5,371 nt of DNA from Amoebophrya sp. A120. Lineage: Eukaryota > Protista > Dinoflagellata. Location of the stretch: the NCBI GenBank assembly GCA_905178155.1, contig CAJINV010000121.1, positions 1 to 5,371 on the forward strand. The letters run 5' to 3'. Within the stretch, counting starts at the first letter, position 1. Every line of letters starts with the position of its first letter. Positions 1-5,368 of the stretch are shown piece after piece. The notes beneath the pieces were generated by a model. It was not told the origin of the DNA. It saw only the letters and a program-made list of their open reading frames with translations, and made no database searches. The position numbers and the translations under genes were made by a program.

Positions 1-95
1 AGTGCAACTTGTCATGCGTGACTCACAAAACTCCTAGGTTTGTGTTGCAAAATCCCCATCCTGACTCTGGTGTGGGTACGTTTTTACTCAGGATA
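1..95. mobile_element. TIR introner-like element, family A, copy A1 (truncated by window edge)
   Basis: 94/95 identical to 5274-5368; ends ...TTTTTACTCAGGATA; interrupts the long ORF. Predicted flanking duplication is CAAGT (96-100); the other copy is not visible. Confidence 0.9.
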
Positions 96-1685
96 CAAGT
101 CCTTCGTCCCGCTTTTTTCCAAAGCCGACGACAGCATTTTCGTCGCCGCCTCCAGCATCACCTCTTTTGCGGTTTTGGCGTCAAGCGAAAACTGCGCGTA
201 CTCGTCTTTTTTACTACCACTCGATGATGACGATGCTGCGCCTGCTGCTGGTGTACTACTAGAACCGGACGTAGTGGCTTCAGCCTTGTTCTTTTTGTCC
301 ACTTTTTTCGCCGCGGCGCTCGCGGCCAAGGAGTTTTCCGGCGGTGAAGAGGATGAAGATGTCGGGGAATTCGTATTGGTCGACGTGTCAACACTTGGAT
401 TATCTTGATCTTGTTCCTGCTGCTGCAGCTGCTCCCCGTCCTCCACTTCCAGTAGCTGTAAACCCGAACCACTTGGATCATTATTTGCTCCAGCGGTAGC
501 TGTTTCTGTTACTTCTCCTGCTCCTGAAGGTGGACCAAAACCGGGATAGCTCAACATGGCCGCTGCACCATCAGGAACCAGAACTCCTTCACTGCCCAAG
601 CTTGTTTCAACGCCGTCGCTGGTACTACTACCCCAGGAACTGCTACTGCCCGCTGCTTCCGCAGACGTGGGCTCGATGATCCCCGAAGATGAACCGGTGT
701 CGTTTGCCTGCATTCGGAATTCCGTCATGGTGGTGGCAATCCCCGCTTCATTGGCCAATACGGGCGAGCCCGGTAAAATGCCGCCGGGAACTTGACCAAC
801 CCCGGGTTGCAAACCCGCCGGCGGCAGGCGCTGGGCCGTGCCACTGGGAGGTCCTCGTTGCTGCTTGTTCTTGCGCGCTTGTTTCTTTGCTGCAGCACCC
901 GTTGGTGCGCCGGCGTTAGTATTTGCGCCGGCGTTTGTTCCACCTCCCGGTCGAACATTCCTACTAGGCCCGCGAAGCCGGTCCGGCTGCTCCGTGATGA
1001 TCTGTTTTTCCTCCACATTCTTCGCATCGGCGTCCAGTTTGGACCGTCCCGGAGCCGGGACCCCGGTGGGCACGAGCGCGCCGGGGAAGATTTCCTCTTG
1101 TCGCTTCTTTTTGGCAGTGGAAGGGGTCTCCTGCTGCTGCTGCTGCTGCGAAGAGGATAGCGTCCCACCATTTCCAAACGACCGGCCCGTCAGCACGTGC
1201 CAATGGGTACTGGCGTGTCCGTGTTTATTGTTGCGGGGGATGGTCGTGCTGGTCGTCCCAGCAGCACTTGTTCTGCTACTGGTAACCGCCGCCGGCGTCC
1301 CCGCGACATTTTCCGCACTCAAGGCACTCGCCGGCTTCGGCGGCGAGGACACGGGTTTCTTTTCCGCTTCAGCTTGTCCCTGGCCGTTCTTGACGTGCTC
1401 CTTTTTGGAAGAACTTGTACCAGTTGTGCCCAGTGCCGTCGTGGACGACGAGGAGGTCTCCCTTAACGACGATGTCGCACGACTAGTGGTCTGTTTTATC
1501 GCCACCTTTTTTACAACCGCAGAAGCTGCAGGGGCCGTCGGTGATGTCTTCTGCGGTGTAGAAGTCGGCACAGCTGCTCCTGTGGAGGTCGCTGCTGGAG
1601 CAGAGGACGACGATTTCAGCAAAGTGCCGGTTTGCAGCGGCGCGCCCACCGCGGGCCGGTAGAGGAGGAGGTAAAGAAGTCGCAT
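96..1685 (-). CDS. Low-complexity, probably disordered S/T/A/G/P/Q-rich protein of unknown function; 3'-partial exon
   Basis: 530 open codons with poly-S and poly-Q tracts. The short hydrophobic N-terminus (MRLLYLLLYRPAVGA) might be a signal peptide. The ORF-track ending YPE* (95-84) lies inside the TIR element, so the real CDS probably continues beyond the window. The start is uncertain. Confidence 0.7.
1131..1148 (-). repeat. (CAG)6 coding microsatellite (poly-Gln)
   Basis: CTG x6 on the plus strand; QQQQQQ in the long ORF. Confidence 0.8.
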
Positions 1686-1689
1686 AGAC

Positions 1690-1968
1690 TATCCTGAGGA
1701 AAAACGTACCCACACCAGAGTCAGGATGGGGATTTTGCAGCACAAACCTAGGAGTTTTGTGAGTCACGCATGACAAGTTGCACTCTGCAGTGTAGTGCAG
1801 GCTAGCAAGTGCAGCCGCATCACAGATTCATCTGCTCATACTGTTCACAGCATCACAAATTCCAAAACACGACTGGAAATGGCTCTCATGCGGATGCGCA
1901 TTACAAGTCTTCCTGTCTTTGCAAATCTGCATTACAACTCTGGTGTGGGTCCGTTTTTACTCAGGATA
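1690..1968. mobile_element. TIR introner-like element, family A, copy A2 (279 bp, inverted relative to A1/A3)
   Basis: 32-bp TIR with 2 mismatches; direct repeat TAGAC at 1685-1689 and 1969-1973. Its reverse complement differs from A3 at about 9 of 279 positions with no gaps. Confidence 0.95.
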
Positions 1969-2014
1969 TAGACCAGACCCATGATCCTCACGCCGGCGGT
2001 CACCGGAAAAAACG

Positions 2015-2276
2015 TATCAAATGCAAAAGTGTCTGGGTCTGGAAGAATGCAACTTCTCATGCTAAATCTGCAGCATGCAAAAATCTGTGTTGCATGATTA
2101 CCAAAAGTCGCCCAAGTTTGACCAATTCGGGAGGTAGTTTCTCATGCAGGATAGGCATTACAAAGGTCTCGCAGAATCTGTCATGCTAGCTCCGGCATTC
2201 CAGACCTCATGGGTCATGGAAAAGCAGCATGACAAATCGCGCATTCTTCCAGACCCAGACATTTTTACACTCGATA
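2015..2276. mobile_element. TIR introner-like element, family B, copy B1 (262 bp)
   Basis: 36-bp TIR (TATCAAATGCAAAAGTGTCTGGGTCTGGAAGAATGC, 4 mismatches); direct repeat AAACG at 2010-2014 and 2277-2281. Confidence 0.93.
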
Positions 2277-3018
2277 AAACGAGGCTCCGAACAATTCGGC
2301 ACCATCCAACTCGACTCGGGCCGCATGCAGTAGAGGCTAGGTTTATAGTGTGGTTCCAGAATTTGGACGGTCAAAAAGTTTTTTCATTCTCATGCAAAGA
2401 GGACCACGCAGTAGTAGATTTATTGCAGTCGTGGTGTTCATGCATTCGTACAGAGACAACAGCACATCACTCACCCTATGACACCAACCGCAAACCCTCT
2501 CGCCCGGACAGAAAAAAAACGACCTCTCACAACTATCGCTCGGAAAAGTCATAAAGTGGTCAAGTTACAATGAGCAGTTGCAATGACCTGCTGCAGTAGG
2601 CACACGAAGCTGCATTCGTCTTTCTTACCATCTATTTAGTTTTAGTAGAGAGCTTTGGTCTGTGAAATAAATTTTCCAGAACGGGAAACACTTTCGCTTT
2701 CCTTTGCTCGTGTTTCAAGACATTGCAGCGCGCAGACACCACTGATCGGCGATGCTTCCGGAAATAGAAATGTCGTTGCAGTCGGATGTCATCCTCCGAT
2801 GAGAGTTTTTTCTCTTCCAAAAAATCACAGCACAGTTCTACTCTTTTTTCAAAATGTCAGATATGATCCAGCCGCGGCAACTATTTACCGTCGGATTGCA
2901 CAATTCTTGCAACCACGACACGGCTCGTTCTCAAACACGAACTTCAGTACAGTCTCCTGCTTTTGAAAAGTTTTACTCAACATTGTACGTCTGAATTGTT
3001 GAAATTGCAAAATGTAAA

Positions 3019-3024
3019 TTTATT
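3019..3024 (-). promoter_or_regulatory. Possible polyadenylation signal AATAAA of CDPK
   Basis: About 57 nt downstream of the stop in AT-rich sequence; it could be chance, and use of this signal in this lineage is unknown. Confidence 0.2.
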
Positions 3025-3080
3025 GTGTTCTGTAAAAAGCTTCGTTGCTCGTGTTCCACTTCCAACTACACCACTTCCAC

Positions 3081-3513
3081 CTACTCCAGCTTGGGTGTGA
3101 AAAATCTTCGGAATTCATCCCAGTCCACCTCCCCGTCGGCGTTTGTGTCCAACTTTGCGATCATGGCTTTCACTTGGTTCGCGTCCGGCGAGAGGGTTCC
3201 CAGCCCCATTTCGCTCCCCTTGCTCAACAGCTCCGCAATCTCGGTTACGGACAAGGATCCGGACCCGTCCTTGTCAAACTTTTGGAACGCCTGCCACAGC
3301 ATGTGGTCCAGGTTGTCGTCGAAGAAGTTCAAACACCCCGCGACAAACTCCGTGTACTCCACTTCGCCCGACTGATCCAAATCCAGGGCCTGCGCGGCTC
3401 GGTGGCACGTGGACTGCTCGACCCCGAGCTCCTGCAACGCCTGCGCCAGTTCCTCCATGGAGAGCGTGCCGTTGTTGTCCACGTCGTACTTCTTGAAGAT
3501 CGCGTTCAACTTC
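3081..3513 (-). CDS. CDPK last exon: calmodulin-like domain with four EF-hands
   Basis: Loops DVDNNGTLSMEE, DLDQSGEVEYTE, DKDGSGSLSVTE and DTNADGEVDWDE; TAG stop at 3083-3081. Confidence 0.95.
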
Positions 3514-5089
3514 TATCGAAGGGAAAAATCCCCCCTCCCCATATCAAAACGAAATTTCTGATGCTGGATTTGCGTACACAAAAATGCTTTGTATTGCAGG
3601 AGGGCATTGCGGCCAGATCCCCAGGCCATGTAGAGACGCATCGGTCTAGTTGCTCAACATGGCAAACGGCTGCCCTTTAGGCCCAACAGCATGACAAACC
3701 GCTTCCATAATGGGCGCGAAGCTTTTGCCCTTGTCTTCTTGCAAGACAAACGTGATTTGTGACCTCAAATCAGCAACGCAAATTTTCGGAAACATGCCTT
3801 TTGATATGGGGAGGGGGAGTTTTTCCTTTCAATAACTTCGGCAGTTTGTTCGCGGAAAGCTGGGAAGCAACCTGCATGCGCATATGGATTGCAAAAATGT
3901 CTGGGTCTGGAAGAATGGAAGGCTTGTCCTGCTTGTCTGGCATGACCCATGATGCTTGTAATGCATGACCCAGCATCGCAGATTTTTGGAAGGCTTCCTG
4001 ATGTCATTTCCGCATGACAAATGCCCTCCTCGCGTAGCACAAATGTGGCGCCTCTTGCTGGTCATGCAATACAGATTTTTTTAGAGTCCAGAGTTAGCAT
4101 CACAAGTTCCAACTTTCCAGACCCAGACATTTTTGCATTTGATAGCGCACCACTTTTTCCAAATCCGACCTTTCGTGAAATTGGCACAGCGACTGAATGG
4201 CGTTCTCGGGGAGGGGGGAAGATTTTTGCGAATTCGCGTCGCGGACCCTGTGTGAAGTAGATGCGGTGTGCTTATTTTTGAATTTGAACAACTAACGAGA
4301 TGACCATGATCCGTACTAACGTTCCGAAGTTTATTTTGCAGACGACACGACAAAAAGCGGTAAAATAAATAGAACACCACCAGCAAAGACTGGAAGTTAG
4401 CTCCAGCCTTCTTCACAAAAATTTATACCAGTCGTATTGGCAGCACTCACTCGCGCTCGGTCTTGACGTGTCCGAATAGGTCAGCATGGCCCGACACAAG
4501 GCCTGCGCCTGGAAGGAGCAGTGGTCCAACAACGCCCAGTTTGGCGGGAGCCGCAGCACCGCCAGCCAGTCCTTCTTTTTGCACGTTTTCGCGATGAAGG
4601 GGAGTTTCCCGCAGAGCAGTTGGAAGAGCACGACGCCCAAGCTCCACACGTCACACTTCGCGCCGAACGACTGGTTCCAGACCTCCGGCGCCATGGTCAC
4701 GGGCGTGCCGGAGATGTTGGTGCTCTTCTATTACAGTGAAAAGTGCCCCCCACCCCCAAAGTGGCAAAAATTTGTGATGCGAAGTTTCCAAATGAAAATT
4801 TTTTGTCATGCATGAAAGGAATATGAATCTTTCTGATGCAGATTCTCGTGGTGTTTCGCATCGCTCGCATGACAAGCACCGCTCTTGCTGGGATCTTTTG
4901 CAATACAAATTTTTGCTATTCACGATCGGAAATCTGTGATGCTGATACACGCAAGAGGGCGAATGTTTCATTTGGAAAGGTTTGCAATACAAATGCTTTC
5001 AAGTTCGGGGGTGGGGGCATTTTTCATTGTAATATCTTCCCGGAATTCTTGTCGAACATTTCCGCCAAACCTAAGTCGATCAACACTGC
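3081..5089 (-). CDS. CDPK: Calcium-dependent protein kinase (CDPK-type: kinase + junction + 4 EF-hands), 5'-partial, multi-exon: join(5089-5040, 4728-4429, 4247-4150, 3882-3840, 3513-3081)
   Basis: The joined exons total 924 nt (308 codons including the stop) with no internal stop: AVLIDLGLAEMFDKNSGKSTNISGTPVTMAPEVW...KCDVWSLGVVLFQLLCGKLPF...RPSASECCQYDW...AIQSLCQFHERSDLEKVVRMQVASQLSANKLPKLNAIFKKYDVDNNG... Kinase, junction and calmodulin-like domain in this order is the CDPK architecture. Exon edges can slide within the 5-bp direct repeats. Upstream exons lie beyond the window. Confidence 0.92.
3514..3834. mobile_element. TIR introner-like element, family C (321 bp); non-canonical intron of CDPK
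   Basis: 36-bp TIR (TATCGAAGGGAAAAATCCCCCCTCCCCATATCAAAA, 4 mismatches); direct repeat ACTTC at 3509-3513 and 3835-3839. Removal gives ..LPKLNAIF.. Confidence 0.94.
3840..3882 (-). CDS. CDPK micro-exon: rest of the junction
   Basis: 43 nt encoding (V)RMQVASQLSANKL(P), resembling the CDPK junction 'IAxxLS' segment; in frame after removal of both flanking elements. Confidence 0.85.
3883..4144. mobile_element. TIR introner-like element, family B, copy B2 (262 bp, inverted relative to B1); non-canonical intron of CDPK
   Basis: 30-bp TIR with 3 mismatches; direct repeat GCGCA at 3878-3882 and 4145-4149. Removal gives ..EKVVRMQVAS.. Confidence 0.94.
4150..4247 (-). CDS. CDPK exon: linker and first part of the autoinhibitory junction
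   Basis: VRDANSQKSSPLPENAIQSLCQFHERSDLEKV, in frame with both neighbours. It may start at 4271 under the alternative intron model. Confidence 0.8.
4248..4428 (-). other. CDPK intron, GT-AG model (181 nt); alternative non-canonical model 4272-4422 (151 nt)
   Basis: AT-rich with an in-frame TGA at 4415-4413. TG|GTATAA...ACACAG|GGTC restores the frame (YDWVRDA). Confidence 0.6.
4429..4728 (-). CDS. CDPK exon: kinase subdomains VIII-XI
   Basis: GTPVTMAPE, DVWSLGV, GKLPF and RPSASE motifs; GC-rich third positions. The 3' edge is 4429 or about 4423 depending on the intron model. Confidence 0.92.
4729..5034. mobile_element. TIR introner-like element, family D (306 bp); non-canonical intron in the CDPK activation loop
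   Basis: Imperfect TIR of about 30 bp (TATTACAGTGAAAAGTGCCCCCCACCCCC); direct repeat TCTTC at 4724-4728 and 5035-5039. Removal gives ..DKNSGKSTNISGTP.. Confidence 0.94.
5040..5089 (-). CDS. CDPK exon: subdomain VII (DLG, the DFG equivalent)
   Basis: Translates AVLIDLGLAEMFDKNSG; 50-nt exon between two TIR elements. Confidence 0.88.
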
Positions 5090-5368
5090 TATCCTGAGTA
5101 AAAACGTACCCACGCCAGAGTTGTAATGCAGATTTGCAAAGACAGGAAGACTTGTAATGCGCATCCGCATGAGAGCCATTTCCAATCGTGTTTTGGAATT
5201 TGTGATGCTGTGAACAGGATGAGCAGATGAATCTGTGATGCGGCTGCGCTTGCTAACCTGCACTACACTGCAGAGCGCAACTTGTCATGCGTGACTCACA
5301 AAACTCCTAGGTTTGTGTTGCAAAATCCCCATCCTGACTCTGGTGTGGGTACGTTTTTACTCAGGATA
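5090..5368. mobile_element. TIR introner-like element, family A, copy A3 (279 bp); probable non-canonical intron of CDPK
   Basis: 32-bp TIR with 1 mismatch. The left flank is ACTGC (5085-5089) and the right flank begins ACT (5369-5371, window end), consistent with a 5-bp duplication. Confidence 0.93.

Follow-up and report, generated by a model that had tools for sequence, protein, structure and literature searches.

The analysed stretch of DNA from Amoebophrya sp. A120 (5,371 bp, hereafter the window) carries seven transposon-like introns with TAT...ATA ends and a 5-bp target duplication, which match the published introners of the Amoebophrya A120 type, together with parts of two host genes (Table 1). 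The 534-aa frame of the second gene had no Pfam match. A2 and B1 sit in the 5' leader of that gene, A2 directly at the likely start codon.

Table 1. Introners and host genes in the window, with motif copies given by start position.
Feature	Position	Strand	Evidence and motif copies
A1, family-A introner, right-hand part, truncated by the window edge	1..95	+	99% identity to 5274-5368; motif at 9 and 40, 31 apart
A2, 279 bp	1690..1968	-	5-bp target duplication 1685-1689 / 1969-1973; six minus-strand copies forming three pairs, 1737/1768, 1817/1850, 1898/1929
B1, 262 bp	2015..2276	no strand	5-bp duplication; pairs 2054/2085 (+), 2195/2227 (-); extra sites 2139+, 2155-, 2178+
C, 321 bp	3514..3834	no strand	5-bp duplication; pairs 3556/3589 (+), 3741/3773 (-); site 3689 (-)
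B2, 262 bp	3883..4144	inverted relative to B1	5-bp duplication; pairs 3924/3956 (+), 4066/4097 (-)
D, 306 bp	4729..5034	no strand	5-bp duplication; pairs 4772/4803 (+), 4867/4900 (-); extra sites 4831+, 4934+, 4984-
A3, 279 bp	5090..5368	+	97% identical inverted copy of A2; right duplication truncated by the window edge; three pairs on one strand throughout, 5121/5152, 5200/5233, 5282/5313
Host gene, calcium-dependent protein kinase (CDPK), 3' part	3081..5089	-	Pfam Pkinase E 4e-17, EF-hand E 6e-28; frames
CDPK kinase exons	about 4429-4728, 5035-5089	-	frames
CDPK junction and EF-hand exons	about 4145-4247, 3835-3882, 3081-3513	-	frames
Canonical GT-AG intron predicted in the kinase gene, 181 bp	4248..4428	-	gene model
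Second host gene, 5' part, 534-aa low-complexity frame	84..2338	- (inferred from frame)	open frame

Excision of C together with 5 bp restored the EF-hand frame and excision of D the kinase frame, and the CDPK frame was maintained when B2 was excised. Judging from these frames only, C, B2, and D would be removed without GT-AG signals. Record 10 of X3, presumed to be an RNA contig, contained 41 nt between window positions 1683 and 2276, which is the value predicted for removal of A2 and B1 with one duplication left at each; the joint is known by its length. Since this length fits, A2 and B1 also appear to be removed without GT-AG. X3 does not cover the kinase exons and has no bearing on kinase splicing, and the raw RNA runs X12 and X13 gave 3 and 2 reads on the window, too few to be informative.

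In the six elements that lie whole within the window, each of the 12 ends began with TAT, followed by seven variable bases and at least AAA, and a terminal inverted repeat and a short direct repeat were present at the boundaries. The duplication was 5 bp long in all five window elements with both flanks. Further counts are based on a related strain, with at least 148 loci from a single metagenome assembly; all loci were retrieved with a family-B pattern, and the families are not fully independent. In these loci, AAA was missing from the ends of some further families. Among 223 well-defined elements delimited without regard to the duplication, it was clean and exact in 192 and carried one mismatch in 21, while core differences in close pairs amounted to 3.1%. 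The duplication edges showed no G bias creating GT or AG beyond exon composition, and in family B the terminal repeats at the two ends agreed above expectation at only two of six strongly variable columns. The introner is repeated, as seen in the A2/A3 pair and in at least 158 matching stretches of the metagenome scan; viral contigs yielded no match. One precise empty site was found in another strain's DNA, which indicates recent insertion. By the published signature and by their lengths, the elements are most probably A120-type introners.

A preliminary description of the window had proposed that these elements share an internal motif, YTGTNATGC. This was borne out, as 22 exact matches were found against 0.47 ± 0.69 expected from 200 shuffles, all inside the seven elements; with up to one mismatch, there were 44 matches against 9.7 in shuffles, 42 of them inside elements. 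The motif was absent from the intergenic stretch of the window, and no exact copy occurred in the predicted canonical intron, which served as an internal negative control. The description had itself listed 22 sites: 11 of them were exact and nine had one mismatch, site 3773 had two, and site 2211 is not credible because it has three. That list was incomplete, as it omitted the six minus-strand sites of A2 (1737-1929, the mirror of A3) and both pairs of B2.

In the related strain, the motif was carried by 333 of 336 elements that had been detected without using it, by a procedure that returned no false elements in 394 kb of shuffled sequence. The exact YTGTNATGC pattern was found in 247 of 251 elements from nine families (six being the window elements), and the motif is common to at least 15 families. 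Its density was 14.1 per kb inside elements and 0.33 per kb in 367 kb of sequence masked of element-like stretches, i.e., about 40-fold lower outside. The consensus was refined to AAW-YTGTVWTGC, with flanking A/T tracts. Position 5 was T in only 4 of 802 paired copies and otherwise toggled among A, C, and G, whereas T at position 6 was found in 145 of 401 second copies of a pair, compared with 36 of 401 for the other copy. The motif may resemble the Sox-Oct composite and the TGCATGCA motif of ApiAP2, but no conclusion is based on this likeness.

The proposed peak of spacing at 31-33 bp, roughly three helical turns, was recovered across families: in 11 of 14, same-strand copies were most often spaced within this interval. 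An exact pair was present in 190 of 322 elements; allowing one mismatch, a pair occurred in 70-100% of copies per family in nine families, compared with 7-27% under random placement. The suggested helical phasing held for opposite-strand copies, which were phased at 10.4-10.5 bp (peak period 10.45); the phases of 11 families clustered (R 0.80, Rayleigh p about 0.0009), which was matched by none of 1,000 block shuffles. It also held for the first copy relative to the element end. However, same-strand phasing beyond the pair was marginal (p 0.06, with 19 bp as the best period of a wide scan) and was absent in families A and D; part of the data also agrees with a second peak near 15.7-16 bp.

The first motif lay 31 (A3), 39 (B1), 42 (C), and 43 bp (D, start 4729) inside the left end, as had been described. 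In the larger set, the first inward motif stood about 31, 41, or 52 bp from the end (77 cases at 30-33, 15 at 34-38, 242 at 39-44, 8 at 45-50, and 15 at 51-54 bp); a repeated motif at a fixed distance from the ends is also a trait of transposase-bound subterminal repeats. By family, inward sites stood in modest register to the end (R 0.45, n 18, p about 0.03), whereas outward sites showed no such register (p 0.47). Of the 30 B copies of 250-253 bp, 22 had a nine-column alignment gap separating the terminal repeat from the first motif. The term "subterminal" nevertheless proved too narrow, because the sites run through the whole element.

Conservation of the motif across families whose remaining sequence does not obviously align was likewise confirmed, as the spacers do not align; spacers and terminal repeats differ among families, the inner terminal repeats being family-specific. 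Between nearest B copies, the core differed at 3.1% of positions against 6.0% at other interior positions, and in distant B pairs at 9.7% against 24.1%. It is very unlikely that motif and spacing are mere left-overs of one ancestor with a tandemly duplicated 31-33-bp unit, even though the spacers were slightly more alike between families than shuffled ones (0.35 vs 0.30), 8 of 105 family pairs shared a BLAST hit at least 60 nt long, and the three pairs of family A are about 80 bp apart. The spacer was no closer to the sequence after its own second motif than to that of other families (0.299 vs 0.302), and the pairs are therefore not tandem units. Moreover, conservation holds for the core positions, whereas position 5 toggles but avoids T, and four sites were exact in 73-88% of B copies despite a mean interior identity of 64%. 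Thus, neutral inheritance is already largely refuted. Spacer palindromy was not above chance (0.40 vs 0.38 ± 0.02).

The elements lie both ways in genes (B 77:63, A 8:8, C 7:6). A signal on the transcript, either a splice signal or motif/anti-motif pairing that stiffens an intron hairpin, would fit the strong predicted RNA fold of B1 (z -9.9), which contains a motif/anti-motif stem, and the interiors of families with both orientations, which fold better than shuffles. Nevertheless, all exact copies of family A lie on one strand of an element that is inserted equally in both directions, and the sense strands of 199 elements held 387 forward and 370 reverse copies. At the free position, only 29% of 75 convergent pairs in B and 11% of 18 in C agreed, complementarity ended at the 9-mer, and there was no Rfam match at gathering score, no strand specificity, and no covarying stem. 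Since elements lie either way in genes and the motif/anti-motif pairs do not covary, we regard an RNA signal as highly improbable. An apparent orientation bias in families A, C, and S210, obtained when strands were called from ORFs only, was removed by a codon model in all but S210 (18:5, p 0.011, uncorrected).

A general chromatin role, in which nucleoprotein sites position or exclude nucleosomes or DVNP and elements spread by carrying them, appears extremely improbable. The ten-bp periodicity and the flanking A/T tracts would agree with it, as would two motif pairs at locus L027 that lie outside any short predicted intron. However, the motif is scarce outside elements and missing from the intergenic stretch of the window, and shape-based positioning signals are unlike a strict 9-mer.

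The motif pairs are probably, though far from certainly, phased sites on double-stranded DNA for one protein that is common to all families and needed for mobilisation. The protein would bind the 9-bp motif and, by bending or wrapping the 110-330-bp element, bring the two TAT ends together, whereupon the element could be excised or copied. In such a layout, TAT would be the cleavage point, followed by the seven variable bases, the inner repeat as the likely family-specific recognition site, and then the pan-family lattice. The lattice binder may be an architectural cofactor supplied by the host, or else a conserved domain within an integrase-type (Ginger-like) transposase. Because the inner terminal repeats are family-specific and some orphan pairs occur in ordinary introns, we incline towards a factor that is shared or of host origin. 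The phased-binding reading of the preliminary description is thus upheld in part, by spacing, phasing, and strand independence; neither a binding protein nor an autonomous element was found in the loci, and the only long element (L019, 505-1608, 1104 bp) gave no Pfam match in six frames. Farhat et al. reported no transposase in A120 (PMC7789003); however, supplement 8 of Gozashti et al. lists an A120 family with integrase-like frames as "5-bp TSD, TA/TA termini" (PMC12130899), and transposase binding to internal repeated motifs has precedent in a MITE (PMC1636448).

The main rival is a DNA-level intron mark, because five intact pairs were found in predicted GT-AG introns. Here, a host protein occupying the phased pairs on chromatin would flag the element, whichever way round it lies, to be removed co-transcriptionally, replacing the missing U1 and GT-AG signals, and the terminal repeat hairpin would set the cut. 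Reading frames are interrupted by most insertions, as an open frame of 300 nt or more spanned 198 of 257 junctions after removal, and splicing is therefore a necessity for every successful family. Farhat et al. did not detect U1 in A25 or A120 (PMC7789003). The inner terminal repeats are family-specific, and the pan-family motif therefore fits a host factor. The masked sequence contained 14 exact same-strand pairs no more than 80 bp apart, and seven of them were spaced at 31-34 bp, against 0.08 expected, or 0.41 with five-fold clumping. Allowing one mismatch, 11 such pairs were obtained: three in decayed elements, one with an inverted repeat, and seven without any remnant beyond the motif, of which the five mentioned lie inside predicted GT-AG introns of 100-174 nt without terminal repeats.

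On the other hand, of 58 predicted GT-AG introns that passed strict filters and showed no remnant of an element, only two contained a pair (56 did not), one exact motif was found in 11 of the 58, and the canonical intron of the window has none. The orphan pairs may be relics of families outside the element library, and their introns are predicted, with only that of L054 backed by what appears to be a recognisable protein motif, and none by RNA. Overall, we consider the intron mark unlikely, though worth keeping in view. If the motif served mobilisation alone, intact pairs would not be expected in introns that lack terminal repeats. It is rather doubtful, though conceivable, that both roles are combined, i.e., that one phased DNA code read by a host protein licenses movement and marks the element in either orientation for removal without U1 or GT-AG. 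If this were true, introns would be defined on DNA, and old introns that have turned canonical and lost terminal repeats could keep the code.

The introner account of Farhat et al. leaves two questions open, namely what moves the elements without a transposase in A120 and how tens of thousands of introns are defined without U1 and GT-AG; it reports no common feature beyond the first 13 bases (PMC7789003). The pan-family phased 9-mer is such a feature. A motif pair provides a ready bait for isolating the responsible protein, and the motif a finder for families and decayed copies that end-based searches miss.

The introners themselves are already published. The A120 elements of Farhat et al. (2021) share the ends with TAT, seven variable bases, and AAA, the terminal inverted repeats, short direct repeats, non-canonical removal, and recent spread (PMC7789003), and the lengths of window-type families match rows of supplement 8 of PMC12130899 (252/260, 278/279, 305, 319-322, 208, and 149 bp). 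The text describing A120 introners in these two papers, and the relevant parts of the other papers cited, do not mention the motif; that of Farhat et al. describes no internal motif, spacing, or phasing, all of which are present here. They regard the direct repeats as variable, in contrast to the clean 5-bp duplication observed here (192/223), and they argue against mobilisation by a transposase, whereas we favour mobilisation. The Ginger-like A120 family 38 (Gozashti et al., 2025) shares the 5-bp TSD and the TA/TA termini; however, it is about 810 bp long with integrase-like frames, while the elements here are non-coding and of 110-330 bp (PMC12130899). Ginger1 and Ginger2/TDD (Bao et al., 2010) likewise have terminal inverted repeats, with 5-bp duplications in TDD-4 and TDD-5 (PMC2836005). 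The duplication found here falls within the 4-5 bp of Ginger elements, but their termini are TGTNR instead of TAT (PMC2836005). Subterminal transposase-binding repeats are also cited for mariner, Sleeping Beauty, hAT, and CACTA (PMC1636448). A parallel in layout is offered by the Emigrant/Lemi1 MITE repeats, where a non-autonomous element carries repeated internal motifs in both orientations close to its ends; these motifs copy half of the terminal repeat of the same family (PMC1636448). By contrast, the single motif described here bears no relation to the terminal repeats, recurs in at least 15 families, and runs through the whole element in helical register.

The window contains parts of two eukaryotic genes, both on the minus strand. 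One, represented by its 3′ portion, encodes a calcium-dependent protein kinase (Pfam matches to Pkinase, E 4e-17, and to EF-hand, E 6e-28); the other, represented by its 5′ portion, is of low complexity and has no Pfam match. Seven elements (262–321 bp) with terminal inverted repeats interrupt these genes. Each of the 12 ends of the six elements lying wholly in the window reads TAT, seven bases, and AAA, and an exact 5-bp duplication accompanied all five elements with both flanks inside the window. Removal of the element and one duplication restored the kinase and EF-hand frames. On a putative RNA contig matched to the organism (X3 record 10), window positions 1683 and 2276 were 41 nt apart, the number expected with elements A2 and B1 and one duplication each removed. 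At 1683–1689, the A2 target duplication shares its final base with the likely start codon of the low-complexity gene. In the window (1969–2014, 3835–3882, 5035–5089) and sampled loci, 37 of 151 gaps between neighbouring elements measured 40–90 bp and 4 were below 40, hinting at insertion beside an already occupied element.

The preliminary description listed 22 sites of the motif YTGTNATGC; 11 were exact, nine had one mismatch, and 3773 had two, but 2211 had three and was not upheld. Exact matches in the window numbered 22 (0.47 expected), and matches with at most one mismatch 44 (9.7 expected), 42 of them within elements. No exact motif was found in the canonical intron 4248–4428, the stretch 2340–3080, or the long exon 96–1684. 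A one-mismatch motif outside elements (2387–2395), about 50 bp past the end of X3 record 10, had a two-mismatch partner 31 bp beyond.

The wider sample comprised 148 loci among the matches listed, totalling 683 kb including overlaps, all taken from a single metagenome assembly of a related strain, whose exon pieces were approximately 95–99% identical to the window's organism; the loci were fetched by the family B terminal pattern, so the sample is biased to that family and covers a small part of the genome. A motif-blind detector, which required TAT ends, a terminal repeat that aligns, and a perfect 5-bp duplication, identified 336 elements, grouped into 15 multi-copy families plus 14 singletons. 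It gave no matches in 394 kb of shuffled sequence. The refined form YTGTVWTGC, fitted on these same elements, was exact in 333 of the 336; across the first nine families, the pattern derived from the window alone had an exact match in 247 of 251 elements. Motif density was 14.1 per kb inside elements versus 0.33 per kb in 367 kb from which element-like sequence had been masked, the latter about 2.4 times the local Markov expectation. A general chromatin role is highly improbable. Further families with TAT ends lacked the published AAA and were detected via motif clusters (Table).

The proposed 31–33 bp spacing was the modal same-strand distance in 11 of the 14 families having such distances (97, 93, and 75 in the other three). 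An exact pair occurred in 190 of 322 elements; with one mismatch allowed, pairs occurred in 70–100% of copies per family (nine families), versus 7–27% by random placement. The suggested helical phasing held for opposite-strand distances (e.g., 17, 49, 59, 90, 100, 142, 173, 184, 216), with a period of 10.45 bp, and was marginal for same-strand distances beyond the pair (p 0.06). Opposite-strand phases of 11 families clustered (R 0.80, p about 0.0009, related families not being independent), a value reached by none of 1000 shuffles with pairs kept as rigid blocks. Families A and D had no phasing beyond the pair, and a second periodicity peak lay near 15.7–16 bp. The first inward copy lay 30–33 bp (77 ends), 39–44 bp (242), or 51–54 bp (15) from the element end, with 15 and 8 ends in the gaps between classes; end register per family was modest (R 0.45, n 18, p about 0.03), and outward copies had none. 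Lengths in the loci differed by ten-base steps, with modes of 252 and 262 bp for family B and of 311 and 321 bp for the C group.

Inheritance of the motif as a neutral leftover of common ancestry is improbable; the data point to selection instead. As the preliminary description stated, the families' remaining sequence shows no obvious similarity (between-family spacer identity 0.35, shuffled 0.30), and spacers are no tandem copies of the sequence after the second motif (0.299 vs. 0.302). Four sites were exact in 73–88% of family B copies despite a mean interior identity of 64%, and nearest B copies differed in the motif core about half as often as elsewhere; these comparisons are slightly circular since sites were defined on the consensus. 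The free position was A, C, or G, with T in only 4 of 802 copies. The seven bases after TAT (window 2018–2024, 2267–2273; family B in the loci) differed at 17% between nearest copies versus 6% in the interior, switching among a few recurring variants; left and right stretches were unlike in 140 of 163 B copies. This pattern points to ends being swapped or resynthesised in the course of transposition.

An RNA signal would agree with the strong predicted folding (z −9.9 for B1, −5.9 for A2), but is very improbable. Under a codon model of strand, elements lay in both orientations in genes (B 77:63, A 8:8, C 7:6, S150 14:10). Every exact family A copy is on one strand, and A2 and A3 are opposed in two minus-strand genes. 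Convergent copies agreed at the free position in 29% (B) and 11% (C) of the largest class tested per family, and motif/anti-motif pairing stopped at the 9-mer. No Rfam match was found at gathering score. In the loci, family S210 alone was biased relative to host genes (18:5, p 0.011, uncorrected).

Masked sequence contained 14 same-strand pairs of exact motifs within 80 bp, and the spacing was 31–34 bp in 7 of them (0.08 expected). Eleven orphan pairs (at most one mismatch) comprised three in decayed elements, one in an inverted repeat, and seven with no other remnant, five of which lay within GT-AG introns of 100–174 nt, predicted without RNA support (Table). These may be introners turned canonical, and the pair can outlast terminal repeats. 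Four of the five introns start with G+TAT, like an introner adjoining a G. Filtering of 762 predicted introns (both strands) left 131, and 58 combined an AT-rich sequence and a strong donor with absence of element remnants; in these 58, a set leaving out three of the five orphan introns, the pair occurred in 2 and the exact motif in 11. The pair is thus not a general intron mark, and a DNA-level splicing mark is possible rather than probable.

Coordinates of pair-bearing predicted introns and of representatives of families without AAA in the sampled loci
Locus	Position	Feature
L006	360-490	short predicted GT-AG intron, intact pair, no terminal repeat
L006	2206-2305	short predicted GT-AG intron, intact pair, no terminal repeat
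L054	4569-4742	short predicted GT-AG intron, intact pair, no terminal repeat
L025	3347-3494	short predicted GT-AG intron, intact pair, no terminal repeat
L064	2367-2479	short predicted GT-AG intron, intact pair, no terminal repeat
L043	7913-8128	family with TAT ends, no AAA
L062	15610-15917	family with TAT ends, no AAA
L011	1159-1402	family with TAT ends, no AAA
L043	7473-7725	family with TAT ends, no AAA

A single-copy DNA contig matched to the window's organism (X1 record 5) connects position 2975 of locus L069 directly to 3295, lacking the 314-bp element and 5 bp. Across two further intervals this contig spans no more than the RNA contig does (125 and 15 nt), indicating that three more elements, one outside the annotated set, are absent too. 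The insertions are therefore recent, and the interior diversity of the elements is older than they are. At L069 2791–2832, two X1 DNA contigs stop and the RNA contig continues through, which suggests an element in the window's organism absent from the locus.

From the tip inward, an element end consists of TAT, then seven variable bases and a family-specific inner repeat, followed by the shared motif lattice. By analogy with TIR transposons, we take TAT to be the cleavage point and the inner repeat each family's recognition site. Unlike the inner repeats, the motif is constant in at least 15 families; it is also strand-blind and in helical register, as expected of the trace of a common double-stranded DNA binder. 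Such a binder would bend or wrap the 110–330-bp element so that its ends join. On balance, the motif probably serves mobilisation, and this role and a DNA-level splicing mark can hold together. The one long element (L019 505–1608; 1104 bp, TAT-ended, 5-bp duplication) had motifs in its left 250 bp, GC-rich short repeats inside, and no Pfam match. A candidate binding protein is that of integrase-like A120 family 38, listed with a 5-bp TSD and TA/TA termini in the available part of supplement 8 of PMC12130899. According to the portions available of Farhat et al. (PMC7789003), no transposase was found in A120.

The elements themselves are known, and the phased motif common to the families appears undescribed. 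It was not found in a title and abstract search that included motif strings and had subscription papers (e.g., Roy et al., 2023) outside its scope, in the available text of PMC7789003 (whose figures S19 and S25 may show internal sequence), in the available passages of PMC12130899 or 40 of the 58 A120 rows of its supplement 8, or in the accessible portions of PMC1636448 and PMC2836005. The end signature of the window elements is that published for A120 introners in the available text of PMC7789003, and their lengths agree with the A120 families in the accessible rows of supplement 8 of PMC12130899.
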